Assembly: GCA_002773855.1 (NCBI GenBank) | Contig: PEZY01000012.1 | Location: forward strand, 367,847 to 431,846 | Reading direction: 5' to 3' | Source: Candidatus Buchananbacteria bacterium CG10_big_fil_rev_8_21_14_0_10_33_19 | GTDB lineage: Bacteria; Patescibacteriota; Patescibacteriia; 2-01-FULL-39-33 | DNA: 64,000 nucleotides | Shown here: in pieces, positions 2,914-59,370 of the stretch | Layout of the letters: every line of letters begins with the position of its first letter | Position numbering within the stretch: position 1 is the stretch's first letter | The notes under the pieces: model-generated | The model's database searches: none | Told to the model about the DNA's origin: nothing | What the model saw: only the letters and a program-made list of their open reading frames with translations | Made by a program: the position numbers and the translations under genes

Positions 2914-4698
2914 CTAAATAATTATTAAAATAATCAAAAGACTAATAAACACCAAACTAGATATTATCATCTTAAGATTTTGTTTTTTAAATTGAATAAA
3001 TATATTAATCAAGAGCGTTGCAACAATCAAACCTAACATTATTTTATAAATAGTCGCTGAAATCGAGAATAACCAATTAACATTGCCAGATTTACTATCT
3101 TTAGCAAAAAAATACTGTTGGGTTAAAGAAGCTTTAACTGGTTTAATGCCATCCCATGATACGTCGGTTGTTACTGAATTGCCAGCGTAGTCGGTCGCTG
3201 TAACACTAGGCAAAACCACTGGATTAAATAACTGTTCATTTTCTTGATTAAATATAATAGTGCTGCCAGTCCATTTGGTTGGCAAGCTAATATCTGGCTG
3301 AAGATCTATTTTATAATTACCAAATGAAACACTAGCGTTTTTAGTATCACTATCTAAGAAAACTTCAGCTCTAACTATTTTTTGCTCTTTGTCGTTAGCC
3401 TCTAGGACAAATAGTTTACTGGCTTCAATATTAATAGCTGGTGGAATTTGATCCAATGACACCCTATAAACATCTGAAGACAACGTTTTTGAACCATTAC
3501 TAGCTTCAAATCTTAAATTATTTTCACCTTCACTCAAAGACAAGCTAAATTCAAAATTACCGTCTTTAGAATTAGTTAACTCTAAATATTTTACATCATT
3601 TAAATAGACATTTAGTGTCTTAGCCGATACAGCTAGAACACTAAAATAAGTGGGATTTTCATTAACCACTGAATCATTTTTAGGATAAGACAAGATCGGC
3701 ACAGACAAAGAAGATGCAATAATCTTTTCACCAAAAACTTTTTGACTGGAATCACTAACAACAGTATTTTCATTTGGTTCTCGTGTTACTATATTAGCTA
3801 CCGGAATATCATTAACAGACCCAAAAAACTGAGCTACTAGCGTCGTATCATAACCATTAAACTTACCACTTACCACTCCCACACCAATTTCAGTAAAATC
3901 TGGATCAATTATATTAGCATAATGAGTCTTACTCTGAACCCAAGCATTAACCACGTCAGCCGCATCAACAAAACCCATGGCTAAATTTTCACCAGCCGTG
4001 CTATAAGTATAATTATTTTTCCGTAACCAATAACCTAACCCCTTCTTTTTTGGACTAACATGAGCAAAATACTGTTCAGTTAACATATCCTGAGCTTTTT
4101 CATAAGCGCCTTTATTTAGAACATCATTTTTGATCAATAAGTTTAAACCCAAACTACTTCTAATTTCATTGGTTAAATTTATAATTTTCTCCGCTTGCTT
4201 TTTAGAAACATCTGGCGTCACCCAAGCACTTAACGGTAAACTAACTACAAATATTACAATTAATAGTTTAATAGCAATAGCCGATACTCCATAAGCAAAT
4301 AAACTATTGGTTTTTAAAATTTTTGGTGAAAACTGATTACCTGAATAAGAAAAAAATAAATCCTTCAAATAACCACCACCTCTAGGATTTTTACCTTGTT
4401 TAATAGCCTCACCATCTGGCACACCATCACCATCAGAGTCAGGATTATTAGGATCGGTTTGATAAATTTTTATTTCTTCGTAATCAGAAATACCATCACC
4501 ATCCGAGTCGGGGTTATTGGATTTAGTGCCATAAAGCTTTTCTTGATAATCACTTAGACCATCACCGTCGGTATCAGCCATTATTCGAATTCTGTCTGAT
4601 AATTCTTTTACTTTTAGTTCTAATTTTTTAGACTTTAAATCAATATCACTTTTAGGTGTGACAATTATTTTTTTTCTACTTTTAATAGTCTTTTTCAT
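2914..4698 (-). CDS. Membrane-anchored protein with thrombospondin type-3-like Ca-binding repeats and a CAP/SCP (PR-1, YkwD-like) domain
   Basis: Three D.DGDG..D repeats (DTDGDGLSDYQE, DSDGDGISDYEE, DSDGDGVPDGEA); CAP motifs (HYANIIDPDFTEIGVGVV, GENLAMGF); internal and C-terminal TM helices. Confidence 0.6.
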   Translation of the reverse strand: MKKTIKSRKKIIVTPKSDIDLKSKKLELKVKELSDRIRIMADTDGDGLSDYQEKLYGTKSNNPDSDGDGISDYEEIKIYQTDPNNPDSDGDGVPDGEAIKQGKNPRGGGYLKDLFFSYSGNQFSPKILKTNSLFAYGVSAIAIKLLIVIFVVSLPLSAWVTPDVSKKQAEKIINLTNEIRSSLGLNLLIKNDVLNKGAYEKAQDMLTEQYFAHVSPKKKGLGYWLRKNNYTYSTAGENLAMGFVDAADVVNAWVQSKTHYANIIDPDFTEIGVGVVSGKFNGYDTTLVAQFFGSVNDIPVANIVTREPNENTVVSDSSQKVFGEKIIASSLSVPILSYPKNDSVVNENPTYFSVLAVSAKTLNVYLNDVKYLELTNSKDGNFEFSLSLSEGENNLRFEASNGSKTLSSDVYRVSLDQIPPAINIEASKLFVLEANDKEQKIVRAEVFLDSDTKNASVSFGNYKIDLQPDISLPTKWTGSTIIFNQENEQLFNPVVLPSVTATDYAGNSVTTDVSWDGIKPVKASLTQQYFFAKDSKSGNVNWLFSISATIYKIMLGLIVATLLINIFIQFKKQNLKMIISSLVFISLLIILIII

Positions 4699-24587: not shown

Positions 24588-25140
24588 TGTCTAGATAAAT
24601 CTATAAGCCGAATTCTGTTCCTGATGGGTCTGTCTCCAAATAGTCTTTTGTTTATAAGTTTTCACAATTTTGAAATAAATTTTTTAAACAATTTTTAAAG
24701 TTTAGTGGAGCTAAGCTGAAAAAATTTTTATAAAATTTAGACAAAATTTGGAAATTTTAACAAATATGCTATTTGGTGACAGACCCATACAAAGAGATGA
24801 CAATCTATCTGGATTAACTATTACTAGTTAATTCTAGCCCCCTACTATATTTGGGGTTGCACTAAGTAGAGTTTACCACGAACTGCCGGTCACCGACAGC
24901 TGAGTCACGTAGCTTTAGACTAAGGGGATATCCCGTTCTTATTCTAAAACATCATGACACTTTTCACCTTTCATTTGCCGAAGCAAACTAGTATTGTCTC
25001 TGTGGCACTGGTCCTAACTATACCTCGCGATATAGCTGGTGGGCGTTACCCACTACCATGACTTTAATCATAGTGATTAAAGAGTGTTCGGACTTTCCTC
25101 TCCGATTAAAACCGGAGTAGTCATCCAACTTATCTAGACA
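24588..25140 (-). ncRNA. rnpB: RNase P RNA (bacterial type A) with a long AT-rich insertion
   Basis: Ordered conserved elements on the minus strand: P1 (5' gucuagauaag / 3' cuuaucuagac), P3 hairpin, P4 5' strand GAGGAAAGUCCGAAC, GGUAACGCC, AGUGCCACAGAGA, GGUGAAA, GGUAAACUC, and P4 3' strand ACAGAAUUCGGCUUAU with compensatory GG/CC to AA/UU change versus E. coli. A consensus promoter puts the TSS at P1. Confidence 0.8.
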
Positions 25141-45223: not shown

Positions 45224-45257
45224 GGATTTTTTATCATATAAATATCTTCATAAACCT

Positions 45258-45481
45258 GCGACAATTAAAAAATTTAAGGAGAAGATGAAACGAGAGCCCT
45301 GGCGATTGGGCGTCGTCTACATCCAAAATTTTCAACTGTTTGAACCATTTTCGACATATCTAGAATAATGAAAATGGTGAGTTTTGAAAATTAGCCAGGC
45401 GAAGTTTTAGATTCGACTATAAATTTTTTACTGTCGCGATTTTTGCGGTACTTTTTCTAAAAAAGTACCAAGGTGATTTAG
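45258..45481. repeat. Copy A of a ~225-bp hairpin-rich direct repeat (downstream of uvrA)
   Basis: About 85% identical to 48125-48356; conserved blocks gcgacaatt…aaggagaagatgaaacgagagccct.gcgattgggcgt.gtctac…gttttgaaaattagc…cgaagttttag.ttcgactataaattttttactgtcgcgatttttgcggtactttttctaaaaaagtacca. Confidence 0.75.
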
Positions 45482-45520: not shown

Positions 45521-48115
45521 CTATTTCAAATACTCCTTAATATACTTGCCGGTCACACTCTTGGGGTCTTTCATCACCTGCTCTGGTGTCCCCTTAGCTA
45601 CAATATAGCCACCACGGTCGCCACCCTCGGGACCTAAATCAATTACATAATCAGCGGCATGAATAATATGTAAATTATGTTCAATGACGGCAATGCTATT
45701 TTGTCGATCGATTAATTTGTTTAATACTCCTAACAACAGTTCAATATCATGATAATGTAAACCAACAGTTGGCTCGTCCAGTAAATACAAAGTTTTTCGA
45801 CCCAAAGTATGCGTTAACTCTCTAGCCAATTTTATCCGCTGAGCTTCACCACCAGACAAAGTGGTCGCACTTTGACCTAATTGTAAATAACACAAGCCAA
45901 CTTCCTGTAAGACCTTTAATTTATCAGTGATCTGATAATGAGTATCAAAATAATCTATGGCCTCATCAATGGTTAAAGCTAGTACTTCGGAAATATTTTT
46001 ACCCTTATATTTCACCTGCAAAGTCTCCCGATTAAAACGCTTGCCATGACAGACTTCACACTCCACTGTTACCGCTGGCAAAAAATGCATTTCAATTAAA
46101 TTAACACCAGCCCCATCACAAGCTTCACACCGACCGCCCGGACGATTAAAAGAAAACCGCGACAAAGTATAACTTCGCTCTCGTGATTCTGGCAACATAG
46201 CAAAGAATTCTCTAATTGGTGTAAAAATACCGGTGTAAGTGGCTGGATTAGACCGAGGCGTTCGACCAATTGGCGATTGATCCACAATCACCACCCGATT
46301 AATATATTCAGTGCCAATAATTTTTGACACATCTTCTAAGTCCTCTTTTTTAACATTGGTCGCCAGTCGTGGATTGGCTTTTATTTTTTGAACATTTTTA
46401 TATAAGACATCATATAACAAAGATGATTTACCGCTACCAGACACCCCAGTAATACAGACCATTTTTCTAAGTGGAATATCCACTTGAACATTTTTTAAAT
46501 TATTAGCTCGCGCCCCAATAATTTTAATGGCTTCGCTAGTTGTCGTTCTTCTATTTGAGGCAGTTTCAATAAATCTCTCGCCTCGTAAATATTCTAAAGT
46601 CAAAGATTTTTGGGGATTAGTCTTTTTTAATAATTCTTTAGTCTCACCAATCGCTACTACTTCACCACCATGACGTCCAGCCAGTGGCCCTAAATCCACT
46701 AGATAATCCGAAGCCATAATTGTCCGCTCATCATGCTCGACAATAATCACGCTATTACCCTGATCTTTTAAAGCTTTTAGAGTTTTAATTAATCTTTCGG
46801 TATCTCTTTCGTGTAAGCCAATAGTTGGCTCGTCAAGTACATAAAGGGTTTTAGACAAATGCGAACCGATTTGTGAACCCAGTCTAATTCGTTGCGCCTC
46901 GCCACCAGATAATGTTTCCGCTTCGCGACTAAGCGACAAATAATTTAAACCTACCTGCAACAAGAAATCCAAACGATCACCAATCTCAATCACGACATTT
47001 TCGGCAATTTCTTTTTGACGGCTGGTCATTTTATTATGATAATCCACAAAAAAAGCATAAGCCTGTTCTATCGACAACGCACTGACTTCGGCTATATTTT
47101 TTTTATTAATTTTAACTGCCAATGGTTCGGCTCGCAATCTTTGGCCATGACACGACAAACAAGGTTCAATATTTTTCTCATATTTATTTTTATACTCACC
47201 TATTTCTTCGCCTTGATCATCAAATTTCTTTTTGGCTCCCCATTCTACTACTCGGCCTAAACCATTACACTTCTCACAAGCTCCGTGTGGACTATTAAAA
47301 GAAAATAATCTTGGCTCCACTTCAGGAAAGGCAAAGCCATCATTAGGGCAAGTCCAATTAGAGGACAACAAAAATTCTGGACTATCTTGTTTCTTTTCTC
47401 TAAACAAAGCAATAGCCAGTCCAGTGGCATAATTAATTGAATTTTCTACCGCTTCCGACAAACGACCTTCATCACTAATCATCACGCGATCAATCACAAT
47501 ATCAATACTGTGCTTGCTATGTCTAGCTAGTTTTACTTTTTCATGTAGCGAATAAAATTGACCATCAATTCTAGCTTCGGAAAAACCCAAAGCTAAATAA
47601 TCATAAAGCAACTGATAATATTCCCCTTTTCTATCGACGACAACAGGTGAAAGAATAGTAACATATTCTTCGTCCAACTCTTTGGCCCGGGATTTGATGA
47701 TATCAATCATCTCATCGAGTGCTAATTTATCAATTTTATGATTACATTTTGGACAATAAACTTCTCCTAACCGAGCATATAAAACGCGCAAATAATCATA
47801 AATTTCAGTCAGGGTGCCGACGGTAGACCGTGGATTATGCGACAAAGCCTTTTGGTCAATAGAAATAGATGGCGCTAGGCCAATGATTTCATCAACATCA
47901 GCCGGTTTCATTTGGCCCAAAAATTGCCGGGCATAAGGTGACAAAGATTCGATATAGCGTCGTTGGCCTTCAGCAAAAATGGTATCAAAAGCGAGTGATG
48001 ATTTACCACTGCCGGAGACACCAGTAAAAGCCACCAACTTGTTATGGGGTATTTCTAAACTAACATTTTTTAAATTGTGTACCCGCGCTCCACGGATGAT
48101 TATACTATCTTTCAT
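45521..48115 (-). CDS. uvrA: Excinuclease ABC subunit A
   Basis: Two ABC ATPase modules ([10 protein letters not shown] twice; LSGGEAQRI signature twice); zinc-finger Cys pairs. Confidence 0.9.
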
Positions 48116-48124
48116 ATTATATAA

Positions 48125-48356
48125 ATAAATTAATGCGACAATTTTAAAATTTAAGGAGAAGATGAAACGAGAGCCCTAGCGATTGGGCGTTGTCTACGCC
48201 CAAAATTTTCAATGTTTGAGAAACTTGTTCACTTATTTAAATAAAAAAGTTTCGAGTTTTGAAAATTAGCGGGACGAAGTTTTAGCTTCGACTATAAATT
48301 TTTTACTGTCGCGATTTTTGCGGTACTTTTTCTAAAAAAGTACCAATGTGATTTAG
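48125..48356. repeat. Copy B of the ~225-bp direct repeat (between uvrB and uvrA)
   Basis: See copy A; contains hairpins gggcgttgtctacgccc, cgaagc…cttcg and ggtactttttctaaaaaagtacc. Confidence 0.75.
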
Positions 48357-55707: not shown

Positions 55708-56217
55708 ATGCAACCAAATTTAATCGTCAAAAAATCAGGTATCGCTGGACAAGGTGTTTTTACTACCGTTAACTTTAAAGCTGGACAATTAATCACTGCG
55801 CTAATCGGCCGACGAATGTCAATGGAAGAAATGATCAAGACTGTTGATGCTGGCCTCGAAGCTGGCTCTGACCCCTTGCAAATCGGCGATGAAACTTATT
55901 TAGATTTAGAAGAATTATACAGAAGCATCAATCATTCCTGTGATCCCAACAGCTATATTAGTGGTGAAAATAAGTTAAAAGCGCTTAAAGCGATCAAACC
56001 TGGCGAAGAAATAACCTTTGACTACTCCACCACTATGAACGACAATGAGGCCAAGTTACTAGAGAGTGATAGCATCCTCTGGACGTGTAAATGTAAGTGC
56101 GGAGCCAAAAATTGTCGAAAAATCATTGATCAATTCAAAACTCTACCCCAGTGTCGTCAAAAATTTTATTTAGACAATAAACTAGCACCGGATTTTATTT
56201 TGAAAAAGTTTGGTTAA
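55708..56217 (+). CDS. SET-domain protein lysine methyltransferase (with post-SET Cys cluster)
   Basis: GQGVFT, NHSCDPN and EITFDYS SET signature motifs; C-terminal WTCKCKCGAKNC post-SET; 5 nt downstream of the ATPase. Confidence 0.7.
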   Translation: MQPNLIVKKSGIAGQGVFTTVNFKAGQLITALIGRRMSMEEMIKTVDAGLEAGSDPLQIGDETYLDLEELYRSINHSCDPNSYISGENKLKALKAIKPGEEITFDYSTTMNDNEAKLLESDSILWTCKCKCGAKNCRKIIDQFKTLPQCRQKFYLDNKLAPDFILKKFG

Positions 56218-56228
56218 AATTATCAACC

Positions 56229-56256
56229 AAAAAACCACCAAACGGTGGTTTTTTAA
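56229..56256 (+). terminator. Terminator after SET-domain gene
   Basis: aaaaccacc-aaac-ggtggtttttt. Confidence 0.7.
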
Positions 56257-56271
56257 ATTTAAATTAAGCTA

Positions 56272-57012
56272 TTATCTCAAAGTCCAGCCACCATCTACCA
56301 CAATCACCTGACCAGTTATATAACTAGCCATATCAGAGGCCAAAAATACTGTAGCACCAGCTATATCTTCTGGCTTACCCATGCGTGACAACGGAATCAT
56401 GGCAATGGTCTGTTTTACGCTATCAGGAGTGCTGGCTTTACTAGCCCCAGGAGTTTCAATCGCTCCAGGCGCCACGGCATTAACAGTAATTTTCTTAGGC
56501 GCTAATTCCAAGGCTAAAGCTCTAATTAAGCCATTAACACCACCTTTAGAAGCGCAGTAGTGTACTAATCCCTCAAAGCCCACAAAAGAAGCAATGGAGG
56601 AGATATTAATAATTTTACCACCTATTGGCATGACTTTAACTGCCGCCTGAGAGCATAGAAAAATACTTTTTAAATTAACATCTATCACTTTGTCCCAATC
56701 CGCTTCTGTCATTTTTTCAAAAGGCACAAAAGGAAAAATACCAGCATTGTTGACTAAAATATCAATCTTACCGAAAGTTTTAGCCGCTTTTTTAAACAAA
56801 TCAGCTACCGATGATTTTTTAGATACGTCGCATTTAACTGCTAATGCCTCGACTCCCAACTTCTTTAATTCTGCCACTACACTTTGGCAATTTTTTAAAT
56901 CTAAATCAGACACCACTACATTGCACTTTTCTTTAGCTAAAGCCAAAGCAATCCCCCGACCGATACCGCGTCCGGCGCCAGTAACGACAGCAGTTTTATT
57001 GTCTAATAACAT
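56272..57012 (-). CDS. Short-chain dehydrogenase/reductase (FabG-like 3-oxoacyl-ACP reductase)
   Basis: TGAGRGIGRGIA Rossmann motif, NNAG, catalytic YCASK. Confidence 0.75.
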   Translation of the reverse strand: MLLDNKTAVVTGAGRGIGRGIALALAKEKCNVVVSDLDLKNCQSVVAELKKLGVEALAVKCDVSKKSSVADLFKKAAKTFGKIDILVNNAGIFPFVPFEKMTEADWDKVIDVNLKSIFLCSQAAVKVMPIGGKIINISSIASFVGFEGLVHYCASKGGVNGLIRALALELAPKKITVNAVAPGAIETPGASKASTPDSVKQTIAMIPLSRMGKPEDIAGATVFLASDMASYITGQVIVVDGGWTLR

Positions 57013-57043
57013 ACTTTAATATATTAACTTATTTAATAAGTAA

Positions 57044-57316
57044 TTATTTCTTGCCTTTGATTTTTTGAGCACCAATAATCCCAGCAATAATGGCCGCGGC
57101 ACTGGCGACGCCAGCTACGATTTGTTTTTTAGTTTTATCGTCGGTGCTATCGTACTTCTTTTTGGCCTCCTGAGTTAGAGAGATAATCTTCTTTTTTAGC
57201 ATTTTGATATCATCAGTAATCTCTTTCTGGATTTTTTCAGATTTAGAAGCTGGTTTTTTAGTAACAGTTTTTTTAACCGCTTTTTTTACGGTTTTTTTAA
57301 TTGGAGTTTTTGGCAT
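57044..57316 (-). CDS. Small Lys-rich protein with C-terminal TM helix (hypothetical)
   Basis: KKTVKKAVKKTVTKKPASK N-terminus, IVAGVASAAAIIAGIIGA hydrophobic C-terminus. Confidence 0.35.
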   Translation of the reverse strand: MPKTPIKKTVKKAVKKTVTKKPASKSEKIQKEITDDIKMLKKKIISLTQEAKKKYDSTDDKTKKQIVAGVASAAAIIAGIIGAQKIKGKK

Positions 57317-57433
57317 GGGTTTAAGTTAAATTAATATTATAATTAGTATAACACTTTTACTGAGTTATATAAAATAGATTAATTCAACAATTAAAAAATC
57401 GCCCTCCATATTATGGAGCGCGATTGTAAATGA

Positions 57434-58030
57434 TTAGGGGTATATCCACATACCCAGACGCCGAATGGCTAATATCTCTACCCCAATGACATCCCTGTCA
57501 TTATTATTATCAATTTTTGTAAGTCTCACCTTAAAGCCACTTTTAAGAGCTATTACCTCATCAAAAACTAATTTATTTGGATAGGCCTGCCGTATTTCTT
57601 TACCAGATTTATTTATTTTCACCAATACATCAGAAAAAATCTTATACGATTTATCTTCCAAAAAAACGTCATCAAAACCATAAGCTAAGCAAATTCTTTT
57701 CTTAATTAAAAAATCATGAATAATATTAATATAGGAATTAAAAGGAATTTTATACACGTAGTCACTCAAACCTTTAATTGTATGCTTATATAAAAAATAT
57801 CTCTCTAATATAATCCACGAAATAAAAAATAATTCAGAGATAACCATCACACCAATCACCATCCAAAGACTCGGCACATGATGTCCAAGAACTGGTTCGA
57901 GAATATAAGCTTCAATTAAAATAATTATTGGCGCCAAAACAATCATAATCAGAGCCAAAACCTCTAGTATTCCTTGAGAAACATAACAATAACGATAATT
58001 AGGCAATTGATCCATAACTGGTAAATACAT
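57434..58030 (-). CDS. Membrane protein, hypothetical
   Basis: Two N-terminal TM helices; soluble C-terminal domain. Confidence 0.35.
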   Translation of the reverse strand: MYLPVMDQLPNYRYCYVSQGILEVLALIMIVLAPIIILIEAYILEPVLGHHVPSLWMVIGVMVISELFFISWIILERYFLYKHTIKGLSDYVYKIPFNSYINIIHDFLIKKRICLAYGFDDVFLEDKSYKIFSDVLVKINKSGKEIRQAYPNKLVFDEVIALKSGFKVRLTKIDNNNDRDVIGVEILAIRRLGMWIYP

Positions 58031-58120
58031 GACTAAGTTCTCCCGTTGGTTGAATTAAAAGGTACAGATACTAAAAGACTACTATAAAGACAGTGTTTTG
58101 TCAATATTAAGGTTTGAGAT

Positions 58121-58279
58121 TTATCTTGTCCAATCTCTAATTGTGATACCCTTGCCTCTTTTGGTAATAACTAGTTTTTGGCGTTCTTTGATTTTTAGTT
58201 CTTTAATGATTTCGGCTGGAATGACTATTGATAAGCTACCCTGGCCAACACGGGTAACTTTTCTGATGTATTTTTTCAT
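58121..58279 (-). CDS. AbrB/MazE (SpoVT_AbrB)-family small DNA-binding protein (52 aa; not in ORF track)
   Basis: MKKYIRKVTRVGQGSLSIVIPAEIIKELKIKERQKLVITKRGKGITIRDWTR matches the swapped-hairpin AbrB/MazE pattern (…VG.kG.vtIP.eiR..L.i..Gd.l.i…); a perfect 14-bp inverted repeat lies immediately upstream. Confidence 0.5.
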   Translation of the reverse strand: MKKYIRKVTRVGQGSLSIVIPAEIIKELKIKERQKLVITKRGKGITIRDWTR

Positions 58280-58296
58280 AAATTTGCCTGTTACCT

Positions 58297-58328
58297 AACT
58301 AGTTACGTAATGAGTTACGTAACTAGTT
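58297..58328. promoter_or_regulatory. Perfect 14-bp inverted repeat AACTAGTTACGTAA-N4-TTACGTAACTAGTT (candidate operator/terminator)
   Basis: Read directly; it sits between the DUF1697 stop and the AbrB-like start; a T-rich run follows on the plus strand. Confidence 0.6.
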
Positions 58329-58343
58329 ATTTTATTTTTTTAA

Positions 58344-58886
58344 TTAATTTTTTAACATCAATAAAGCAAGTTTTCGCACAGTATTAATATTTCGCGCGGT
58401 CATATTTTTGTATACCTCACTGCCAATAAAATTATTCATTTTACTTTTAGAATAATCTGTCTTTTTTAGGTGCCAGATTATAGCGCCATCAACATACATC
58501 AAAGAATCGACTTTTGGATTAATTTCAATTAATTTTAGAGTCTTGCTATTAGCAAATTTTTCCCACAAAAACAACACGTCAGTTTTATGGTCCTGATCAT
58601 TAACCCAAGTTTTAGGAACTTTACTACAAATTTTTTCAATATTATTTTGATCACGCAATACAACTCTAATATTCAGGCCAAACGTTTTTTTTATTATTTT
58701 TTCAATCTCACTGGTAATTTCAGCAATATCTTGCTTTTTGGTATCAAAAATAACATTACCTGAATTTATATAAGTAATGACATTAGTACAATAAAGGGAC
58801 TCAAAACACTTTTTGAGTTTTGGCATTTCAATTTTATTGTTACCACCGACATTAATGCCGCGCAGTAGGGCTACGTATGTTTTCAT
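58344..58886 (-). CDS. DUF1697 family protein
   Basis: ALLRGINVGGNNKIEM…VITYINSGNVIF N-terminal pattern characteristic of DUF1697. Confidence 0.55.
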   Translation of the reverse strand: MKTYVALLRGINVGGNNKIEMPKLKKCFESLYCTNVITYINSGNVIFDTKKQDIAEITSEIEKIIKKTFGLNIRVVLRDQNNIEKICSKVPKTWVNDQDHKTDVLFLWEKFANSKTLKLIEINPKVDSLMYVDGAIIWHLKKTDYSKSKMNNFIGSEVYKNMTARNINTVRKLALLMLKN

Positions 58887-58945
58887 AATTAAAGTATATC
58901 AATAATTTAAAAAGAAGAATACTTTAATTTGTTTTATGCTCGGGG

Positions 58946-59108
58946 GCAGGGATTTACGACGTAAACCGCCTGCCAAAAGCAGGACGGTTTACTCTGTCCT
59001 GGGTTGGCGTCTAATCTGCCACCGGCAGATTATTCGACGTTCGCTGTGTCGTTTCGGCTTCCGCCTCCACTCCTGGCTCACTTCCAACCCGTTCGAATCC
59101 CTGCCCCC
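58946..59108 (+). other. GC-rich structured element (~165 nt) of unknown function beside tRNA-Gln; tRNA-derived ends
   Basis: Closed by a 13-bp helix (5' gggggcagggatt / 3' aatccctgccccc). The 5' end belongs to a 27-nt direct repeat of the tRNA-Gln 3' end. The 3' end is an inverted 18-nt copy of the tRNA T-loop/acceptor. Internal hairpins (caggac…gtcctg; atctgcc-acc-ggcagat). A bidirectional terminator follows at 59121-59152. Confidence 0.4.
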
Positions 59109-59120
59109 TCCGAAAAATAA

Positions 59121-59152
59121 AACAAAAACACCGCTTCCAGCGGTGTTTTTGT
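59121..59152. terminator. Bidirectional hairpin terminator (A-tract/T-tract flanked)
   Basis: acaccgc-ttccag-cggtgt hairpin between aaaaataaaacaaaa and tttttgtttt. Confidence 0.65.
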
Positions 59153-59158
59153 TTTATG

Positions 59159-59229
59159 CTCGGGGGCAGGGATTCGAACCCCGATACCTTGGACCAGAAC
59201 CAAGAGTCCTACCGTTAGACGACCCCCGA
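59159..59229 (-). tRNA. tRNA-Gln (anticodon CUG)
   Basis: Minus-strand cloverleaf folded by hand: acceptor UCGGGGG/CCCCCGA (U1:A72), D-arm GUCU-AACGGUA-GGAC, anticodon arm CUUGG-UUCUGGU-CCAAG, T-arm CGGGG-UUCGAAU-CCCUG, discriminator G; CCA not encoded. Confidence 0.8.
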
Positions 59230-59370
59230 ATAATATACTTTTTATATATAATAGCTACAATATCCCCCTATAATACCACAAAAAGACTTAAATATCAATA
59301 TTAACTCTACTCAAAATCATTAAATCAAGTTATAATAGCCTTAGAACCTTTATAACCAAGGAGTGAACCA

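Follow-up and report, generated by a model that had tools for sequence, protein, structure and literature searches.

A small protein-less element with a conserved fold at tRNA gene ends of Patescibacteria: a possible miniature integrative cassette

The DNA stretch analyzed here, referred to as the window, comprises 64,000 nucleotides of contig PEZY01000012.1 from Candidatus Buchananbacteria bacterium CG10_big_fil_rev_8_21_14_0_10_33_19, an uncultured member of the Patescibacteria from groundwater, also termed Candidate Phyla Radiation (CPR). CPR bacteria have very small genomes, and their mobile elements and non-coding RNAs are little known. The sole tRNA gene of the window, tRNA-Gln(CTG), is intact and located at 59158-59229 on the minus strand (ARAGORN; Rfam tRNA, 54.5 bits). 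A GC-rich structured element, situated about 500 bp from dnaX, converges on this tRNA gene and is bracketed by two copies of the tRNA 3' end. This element and its relatives are the subject of the present analysis.

The tRNA-Gln locus

The 27-nt sequence TTTGTTTTATGCTCGGGGGCAGGGATT was found in exactly two copies, at 58928-58954 and 59148-59174, without mismatches, and no match is expected in shuffled sequence. The second copy consists of the last 17 nt of tRNA-Gln and 10 nt of its trailer, because ARAGORN and Rfam place the tRNA at 59158-59229 on the minus strand. The first copy, hereafter the arm, is displaced to the far side of the element. The T-loop and 3' strand of the tRNA (59162-59179) recur in inverted orientation and without mismatch as the 18-nt sequence GTTCGAATCCCTGCCCCC at 59091-59108. 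Since this inverted copy sits at the far end of the element, the element ends can pair over 13 bp (58942-58954 with 59096-59108). An intrinsic terminator at 59117-59157 separates the element from the converging tRNA-Gln.

The original prediction, made from the letters of the window, had described the direct repeat, the inverted copy with its 13-bp end pairing and a terminator downstream of the plus-strand element, and all were found in place. Its sizes have to be corrected slightly: the structured element, estimated at about 165 bp, measures approximately 167 nt (58942-59108), and the span between the repeat copies is 193 bp. This span contains no real open reading frame (ORF). The GC content of the element is 0.53-0.57 compared to about 0.3 in the surroundings, and its folds are far more stable than those of shuffled sequences (plus strand, z = -8.4; minus strand, z = -7.0). 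The arrangement of an intact tRNA with a displaced 3' fragment in direct orientation is that of a tRNA integration scar, as had been proposed. No further tRNA-end copy was found within the window.

The features of the locus are as follows (window coordinates):
58928-58954, no strand: direct repeat copy 1, termed the arm, which matches the copy next to the tRNA at 19/19 positions
58928-58937: trailer part of the arm, a copy of 10 nt of the tRNA trailer
58938-58954, antisense on the plus strand: tRNA part of the arm, the last 17 nt of tRNA-Gln from mid T-loop (A58) to discriminator +1
58942-58954, plus: 5' strand of helix P1, GGGGGCAGGGATT, partner 59096-59108; the family keeps only GGGATT(T)
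58961-58992, plus: hairpin H1 with loop CCAAAAG; pairing kept and sequence variable in the window-type subfamily
58993-58999, plus: conserved junction motif TCTGTCC; family consensus YTTGTCC
59001-59007, plus: 5' strand of helix P2, GGGTTGG, partner 59084-59090; 6/6 pairs changed on both sides, 90% of cells paired
59008-59039, plus: long hairpin H2, the best-supported helix; 24-33 sequences per pair changed on both sides
59038-59045, plus: motif CGTTCGCT, near-invariant columns
59043-59077, plus: H3 region, a variable hairpin closed by GCTG/CTGGC (fold and covariation)
59077-59090, plus: motif CTCACTTC followed by the P2 3' strand CCAACCC; conserved
59091-59108, plus: T-loop-like box GTTCGAATCC, invariant in the family (motif conservation)
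59117-59157, no strand: intrinsic terminator, perfectly symmetric; inverted repeat of 19 nt, A and T runs at either side
59148-59174, no strand: direct repeat copy 2, 10 nt of trailer and the functional tRNA-Gln 3' end
59158-59229, minus: tRNA-Gln(CTG), intact (ARAGORN, Rfam)
59270-59298, minus: promoter-like site for the tRNA, TTGATA, 17-nt spacer, TG and TATTAT (consensus match only)

In the window copy the GTTCGAATCC box also holds the full inverted T-stem/acceptor 3' strand of the tRNA and in this way forms the 3' strand of P1. Most family members have a GC-rich terminator on the outer side, which is absent from the window copy. Here the interval between the arm and the start codon of a DUF1697 gene (58887-58929) holds a perfect, AT-rich inverted repeat of 11 nt, AATTAAAGTAT / ATACTTTAATT.

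The family and its fold

A DNA pattern scan for the conserved 3' motif (CTCACTTC-N6-GTTCGAATC) in one genome per species, covering 185,579 species, gave 38 matches. Seven of these were real, all in metagenome-assembled genomes (MAGs) of Patescibacteria, two of which had two loci each. The remaining 31 were chance matches in other phyla, and none of them (0/31) was recognised by covariance model R1. At least 118 stretches of JGI metagenomes contained the same motif, and among the loci fetched, which are designated by L-numbers, about 60 distinct members were identified by nhmmer and then by covariance model R1. In the scans made the family is known only from Patescibacteria DNA. Phage records and plasmid records held no member; of two pattern scans of the IMG/VR viral contigs, one gave a single chance match inside a coding region and the other 66 matches, none of which fitted the covariance model. 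We found no description in Rfam or the searchable literature of a CPR tRNA-flanking RNA or miniature integrative element of this kind.

Members share a common layout. In the plus orientation of the window, they begin with a tRNA 3'-end copy ending in GGGATT, followed by a junction that reads TTYCCGCC or TTACGACG. Then come an optional H1, replaced in other subfamilies by a C/U-rich stretch, the motif YTTGTCC, helix P2, the long hairpin H2, CGTTCGCT and hairpin H3. The end is formed by (T)AGCTCACTTC, the return strand of P2 and the invariant GTTCGAATCC. Each member thus has three parts, namely the tRNA 3'-end copy, which runs from the middle of the T-loop to the discriminator, the core (about 150 nt) and the T-loop-like box. 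Most members are followed by a symmetric terminator, with stems that extend through A and T runs, and then by a convergent tRNA 45-60 nt from the element.

At least 11 tRNA species are used, namely Ser(GCT, GGA, TGA), Gln(CTG, TTG), Tyr, Asn, Lys, Arg, Val and Pro. The arm was found to equal the last 16-17 nt of the adjacent tRNA in about 20 of the 31 scorable cases, and the direct repeat may reach into the trailer or terminator, so that its length is 27 nt here, 29, 51 and about 80 nt elsewhere, and 16-80 nt overall. A terminator in tRNA orientation regularly follows the arm, which is the expected look of a displaced tRNA 3' end that has kept its own terminator. Two loci, L101 and L025, carry copies without any tRNA.

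Some arms and tRNA genes are themselves interrupted. GC-rich palindromic inserts resembling CCTGCCTGCCGGCAGGCAGG split displaced arms at the same point, just before CAGGGATT, in L008 (7800-7840), L046, L061, L115, L116 (3100-3150) and L120; a similar insert lies at 7240-7320 of L005. In the arms of L122 this point is occupied by a structured insert of another kind, about 60 nt long. These inserts may represent another miniature insertion element that targets tRNA-like sequence. A tRNA-Asn at about 5300-5480 of L122 was missed by ARAGORN; its antisense 3' end and T arm are clear and its anticodon region is interrupted, consistent with the group I introns reported at position 35/36 (PMC13011429).

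When RNAalifold was run on a plain MAFFT alignment only P1 and H2 were recovered, and the structure was therefore specified by hand and refined by the covariance model. Covariation was assessed on the model-based alignment of 55 distinct sequences against 500 shuffles. Standard pairs were found in 87.1% of cells compared to 66% in the shuffles, and 360 cells were changed on both sides compared to 112, with such changes in 29 of the 35 pairs. The covariation score was 0.423 compared to 0.124, and none of the 500 shuffles reached any of the observed measures. When partners were slid by 1-3 columns, pairing fell to 28-51%. Pairing of the core is strongly supported by these compensatory changes. 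The signal is carried by P2, H2 and H3. P1 is conserved but short, with only GGGATT(T)/(G)AATCCC (6-7 bp) kept across the family; the 13-bp stem of the window is exceptional, and end pairing over 13 bp does not hold as a general trait.

The signs that bear on the active strand conflict. For the plus strand speak two conserved wobble positions, one with U.G alternating with C-G and one with G.U alternating with G-C or C-G, the cUUCGg and A-rich loops, and the terminator downstream. The ratio of G.U to A.C on this strand is 101:43 overall and 37:43 outside the two conserved pairs. Just upstream of many arms there are boxes (TATAAT, TACAAT) that look like a -10 element, a resemblance only. For the minus strand, the fold is the more stable one in 45 of 53 elements, as it is for every class of hairpin, a comparison biased by G-richness; A.C alternates with A-U at one H2 position in five sequences; and the junctions are purine-rich. 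Elements in the spacers between two tRNA-Ser genes have no terminator and must be co-transcribed with the tRNAs on the minus strand. The core may act as an RNA, for which we lean slightly towards the plus strand with an end at the shared terminator. The core may instead act as a folded DNA strand.

It was considered whether the element is a known RNA in disguise: a transfer-messenger RNA (tmRNA), a permuted or intron-containing tRNA, the signal recognition particle (SRP) RNA or a group I intron. The ends are superficially tmRNA-like (5' GGGGG..GGAUUUACGACG, 3' GUUCGAAUCCC...), and group I introns are frequent in tRNA genes of Patescibacteria (PMC13011429). ARAGORN called no tmRNA and no second or split tRNA on the element span, and over the window Rfam 15 gave only the tRNA and an RNase P RNA (bacterial class A, 24757-25136, minus strand, 126 bits) at gathering score. 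Permissive Rfam searches with 700 nt of the window and 300 nt of L045, a distant member, gave no further family at that score, 6S RNA, HEARO and Y RNA-like families included. The sub-threshold matches were confined to the tRNA, to the hairpin of the terminator and to the inverted repeat that surrounds this hairpin, and none fell on the core. The span is accordingly not read by either program as the tmRNA, intron-containing tRNA or permuted tRNA that had been raised as possibilities. Several copies per genome, some in tandem arrays, also set the element apart from the known RNA classes, which we regard as effectively refuted.

The individual candidates fail on particular points. For a tmRNA, the third pair of the would-be acceptor stem is G-C and not G.U, and the CCAACCC before the T-loop box cannot form a T stem. 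For an intron-containing or permuted tRNA, only the 72-nt tRNA-Gln was called and the arm duplicates a 3' end that this tRNA already has. SRP RNA, considered for the adjacency to dnaX, is ruled out by the absence of the helix-8 motif, the lack of an Rfam match and the multiple copies. The group I introns reported from tRNA genes of Patescibacteria lie in the anticodon loop at position 35/36 (PMC13011429), and the element has no Rfam match to this class.

Insertion, inheritance and neighbours

Members occur in arrays, at more than one tRNA gene in a genome, away from any tRNA and, at one locus, without a core, which suggests that insertion at tRNA 3' ends has taken place repeatedly. In the tandem arrays of L008 and L122 only the copy nearest to the tRNA has a perfect arm, and the outer arms are degenerate or split by GC-rich hairpins. 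In L055, an array of two units, neither arm equals the adjacent tRNA end, and the proximal arm matches it at 8/19 positions. One MAG carries cores that are 95.6% identical at tRNA-Gln(CTG) and tRNA-Gln(TTG), each with the locally matching type of arm. L101 carries two copies, 92.6% identical and 3.6 kb apart, with no adjacent tRNA. In L012 an outer core-less "solo" copy consists of TAGGATT and AATCCTA joined by four bases, and is followed by the same 80-nt block of terminator and arm that flanks the full copy. A search for further core-less hairpins of this kind gave chance matches only.

The observed family membership, architecture, tRNA association, compensatory pairing, lack of a linked protein and array polarity are, in our judgment, somewhat better explained than not by a miniature non-autonomous cassette that integrates at tRNA 3' ends and has a novel structured RNA or a folded-DNA module as its cargo. 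On this reading 58928-59157 would hold a single integrated cassette, about 220 bp long and without a protein gene, made up of a multi-helix core (P1, P2, H2, H3, with or without H1), the GTTCGAATCC box, usually a symmetric terminator of its own, and a copy of the target tRNA 3' end. Insertion would take place by recombination within the tRNA 3'-end homology, leaving the tRNA intact and a second 3'-end copy (the arm, here the 27-nt repeat) beyond the core. New copies would enter beside the tRNA and push older ones outward, where these would decay. The candidate driver is either a recombinase that acts in trans or homology-facilitated recombination, for which the conserved tRNA gene would be the anchor.

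Among the explanations that the original prediction had offered, a very small tRNA-targeting mobile element carrying a structured non-coding RNA fits best, because homologues adjoin many tRNAs, form arrays and occupy two tRNA genes in one genome. A tRNA-derived structured RNA, also suggested, applies to the two ends of the element and not to its core. The decayed remnant of an integration has become unlikely. It would be the rest of a large island or prophage at tRNA-Gln, reduced by internal deletion to two att-flanking arms, and we give it little credence. A direct repeat of a tRNA 3' end is indeed the classical island signature (PMC4383910), the gene content past the element differs in each relative, and remnants of recombinase elements occur at tRNA-Ser. 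However, more than 50 diverse copies have the same length and boundaries, covarying hairpins would be unexpected in att arms bound by protein, the repeats enclose no integrase fragment, the window holds no other tRNA-end copy, and the family is absent from the viral, phage and plasmid collections.

A variant of the cassette reading, differing in the nature of the core, is that a single folded DNA strand would serve as the recombination site, much as integron attC sites or the attP hairpin of CTX phage do, and that a recombinase acting in trans would use it to place small cassettes beside a fixed attachment site, the tRNA 3' end. G.U and A.C are equally frequent outside the two helix-end pairs, unlike in the tRNAs of the same loci, where 60 tRNAs had 118 G.U and 0 A.C in ARAGORN stems, a control that is imperfect as ARAGORN may bracket allowed pairs only. 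A fold that works as DNA would be compatible with this symmetry as well. Likewise, pairing is conserved while stem sequences change freely, there is no space for a promoter, and arrays grow at the attachment-site end like integron arrays. The single-stranded motifs are, however, highly conserved and strand-asymmetric, as is more usual in RNA or at sites bound by protein; the plus strand has cUUCGg and A-rich loops; and no cognate recombinase was found. We consider this variant improbable, although less so than the decayed island.

The DnaX protein places the organism in Candidatus Falkowbacteria. To follow the locus in relatives, dnaX loci were chosen by a DnaX 57-77% identical to that of the window. 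The order of dnaX, a 98-aa ORF and tRNA-Gln(CTG) was kept in all five relatives with DNA past the tRNA, except that the 98-aa ORF is missing in L010 and L012, the most distant relatives compared. A clearly homologous element converging on tRNA-Gln was found in four of the five; in L009 there is just a decayed relative with a weak score (41.8 bits). On its left flank the element of each relative copies the tRNA 3' end of its own genome (GGAGACAGGGATT in L005 and L010, GCGGGACTAGGATT in L012), and the hairpins differ in sequence with their pairing kept. In L008 the element is present as a tandem of divergent copies, two in number. Synteny breaks off just past the element, and the genes that follow are different ones in each relative. 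The 24 contigs with the identical DnaX group with three loci that have the same neighbouring genes; in the two of these loci that reach past the tRNA the element was identical to that of the window.

Up to tRNA-Gln and the element the conserved order (window 56000-58900 compared with L005, L008, L009, L010 and L012) includes a VirD4/TrwB-like DUF8128 ATPase, small ORFs and dnaX. The window genes beyond the element encode a DUF1697 protein, a MazE-like 52-aa ORF, a 198-aa protein, an SDR and a SET-domain protein. On the opposite side of the tRNA gene relatives also carry a tRNA-fragment repeat of another type: a duplicated 5'-end fragment of tRNA-Gln (leader, acceptor and D arm) upstream of the real tRNA, which the window does not have. 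A GC-rich hairpin of about 39 nt is inserted in the D loop of this fragment. The fragment was found at about 7290-7400 in L005, 7240-7300 in L008 and 7250-7330 in L004, and upstream of tRNA-Gln in L046.

Neighbouring genes were surveyed by clustering all ORFs within 4 kb of the elements and by a Pfam scan of the 143 neighbours within 2.5 kb. They are housekeeping genes that vary by locus, such as those for DnaX, RecG, helicases, methyltransferases and transporters. This survey gave no recurring tyrosine integrase, transposase, nuclease or reverse transcriptase near the elements, and no IscB, TnpB or IS110 protein gene beside them. The only recurring mobile-element protein is a large serine recombinase at four tRNA-Ser loci, with genes at the following positions:
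L070, 1626-3248, minus
L086, 2532-4070
L025, 33-908
L019, 4894-5202

The 3' coding end of the recombinase gene itself holds a site resembling a tRNA-Ser 3' end, GTGCGGAG..GGA|CG. In L019 a truncated recombinase copy is joined to the tRNA and the matching half-site follows the terminator of the element; in L025 the end of the recombinase gene is joined to the element arm; and L101 has a tRNA-Gln-flavoured version of the site, GCTCGGGGTCGTGGACG, at about 4255-4275. The tRNA-Ser-like sequence in the last codons of the recombinase serves as its attachment site. The junctions are independent evidence that tRNA ends, and the arms copying them, are live recombination targets in this group. The serine recombinase cannot be named as the mobiliser of the cassette, because the other side of the junction is dissimilar between the two kinds of element.

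Several observations weigh against an integrating cassette. We infer mobility and did not observe it, since neither an empty/filled pair of one site nor a circular junction was found. No mobilising enzyme was identified among the neighbours of the elements, and a circle of 220 bp is an awkward substrate for recombination. The window contains one family copy only (covariance model R1). In L168 and L076 the arm is of the other tRNA-Gln type than the adjacent tRNA, so that an arm can travel with the core and is not simply a displaced host fragment; the crossover there would have been in the shared acceptor-end segment and not in the T loop. Signs of the active strand disagree in folding energy, tetraloops and mismatch spectra, with the more stable folds on the minus strand, and the tRNA-Ser spacers lack the terminator. 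Finally, the element is present at the dnaX-linked tRNA-Gln in the relatives examined, and the closer ones carry the same subtype, which also fits long vertical inheritance of a resident gene.

A resident, non-mobile family of small RNA genes that work with the adjacent tRNA through functional tRNA-derived ends draws support from this last point. The gene could give a plus-strand RNA, with a 5' end complementary to the tRNA 3' end and trailer and a 3' end over the terminator, that acts on the precursor, or a minus-strand RNA that ends in a tRNA-like 3' half; selection or local gene conversion would keep the repeats identical. The perfect arms beside the tRNA, the perfectly symmetric terminator shared with the converging tRNA, the -10-like matches upstream of arms, minus-strand co-transcription in the tRNA-Ser operon spacers and a core conservation stronger than neutral DNA would show are in line with this. 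However, a 17-nt arm that matches at least 11 tRNAs requires copying at the DNA level in any case. Moreover, distal array copies have broken arms, arms tolerate hairpin insertions, copies in L101 and L025 have no tRNA, end pairing is limited to 6-7 bp family-wide, and neither side has space for a -35 box. We hold a resident gene to be improbable, although it is the main rival of the cassette reading. The original prediction had taken an element at the same position in all relatives, with no extra copies, as the mark of a conserved local RNA; the position recurs in relatives, and extra copies exist elsewhere.

An equally tentative proposal dispenses with a dedicated enzyme. A selfish cassette, arriving for instance by DNA uptake, might home to any tRNA gene end that matches it, with its arm and the conserved tRNA gene serving either as homology arms or as a guide of RNA or DNA. 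The core would be its active part and might enlist host machinery, or work on the ends of tRNA genes as an RNA that resembles a ribozyme or a guide. Alternatively, the elements could be a CPR-specific RNA class that acts on tRNA maturation by pairing with or mimicking tRNA 3' ends.

If the integrating-cassette reading is true, very small genetic elements that are associated specifically with tRNA genes form a class so far unrecognised in CPR bacteria. It would explain stray tRNA 3' fragments and gene-order breaks beside tRNA genes, and tRNA ends in this group would be busy sites of recombination that are also used by serine-recombinase elements. The analysis adds a structured family of about 60 members, with strong covariation, that is absent from Rfam. 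It raises the question of how a gene-less unit of 220 bp reaches many tRNA gene ends and what its conserved fold does.

Comparison with known systems

Islands that integrate at tRNA genes restore the gene with sequence of their own, and the displaced fragment is found at their far end (Islander; PMC4383910), and an attB of the T-loop class is known from mycobacteriophage Ms6 (PMC1762012). The element resembles such islands and prophages in its intact tRNA, its displaced 3' fragment in direct orientation, the identity from T loop to tRNA end and the outward stacking of copies. At its ends it has what Islander looks for, an intact tRNA and a displaced 3' fragment, with 17 of the 27 nt of the repeat being tRNA 3' end. 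In contrast, the integrase and cargo of an island are missing: the 193 bp between the repeats hold no real ORF, and no integrase recurs near members. The element further differs in being about 220 bp compared to kilobases, in having an extra inverted T-loop box, in consisting solely of a covarying multi-helix core and in that the arm can travel with the core.

Like miniature inverted-repeat transposable elements (MITEs) and cis-mobilizable elements (CIMEs), the element is small, protein-less, multicopy and repeat-flanked, accretes into arrays and would presumably be moved in trans. MITEs have long terminal inverted repeats, short target duplications of fixed length and a wide range of insertion sites. 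At the ends of the element, inverted repeats amount to 18 perfect nucleotides in the window and to 6-7 bp (GGGATT/AATCCC) across the family. Unlike in MITEs, the sites are tRNA 3' ends, the duplication is the tRNA end (16-80 nt), and the interior is structured and not a palindrome.

Integron attC cassettes and the folded attP of CTX phage share with the element small cassettes without a recombinase, structure kept over sequence and the newest copy proximal at a fixed site. The single-stranded motifs and multi-branch fold of the element and the absence of an ORF from the cassette are unlike attC. We know of no IntI- or Xer-type partner for the element.

A structured RNA of about 150-200 nt with an end of about 17 nt that is dictated by, or complementary to, the target, here the tRNA 3' end, is also seen in the omega RNA of IscB/TnpB, the bridge RNA of IS110 and, as regards the end, retroviral primer-binding sites. 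Omega RNA, bridge RNA and retrons were rejected as there is no linked nuclease, recombinase or reverse transcriptase (neighbour-ORF clustering, Pfam), and no Rfam HEARO match was obtained. Neither is the arm a primer-binding site for a mature tRNA, since in the window it matches and runs on into the gene flank and is not the complement of a CCA end.

The T-loop sequence GUUCGAAUC and, in the window copy, a terminal helix made of acceptor and T-stem sequence are shared with tmRNA and bacterial Y RNAs. The element differs from these in lacking a T arm, G3.U70, a tag reading frame and a Ro gene, and its helix is 6-7 bp in most members. The scar logic is classical; for a gene-less unit of 220 bp, confined to tRNA ends and with a covarying core, we found no counterpart in Rfam or the searchable literature.

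Elsewhere in the window, other repeats were observed. A 252-nt tandem pair with 78% identity is located at 1867-2451. Segments duplicated 2.9 kb apart, with 92-95% identity, are found at 45257-45481 and 48134-48356 and at 46422-46517 and 47997-48092, which suggests paralogous genes.

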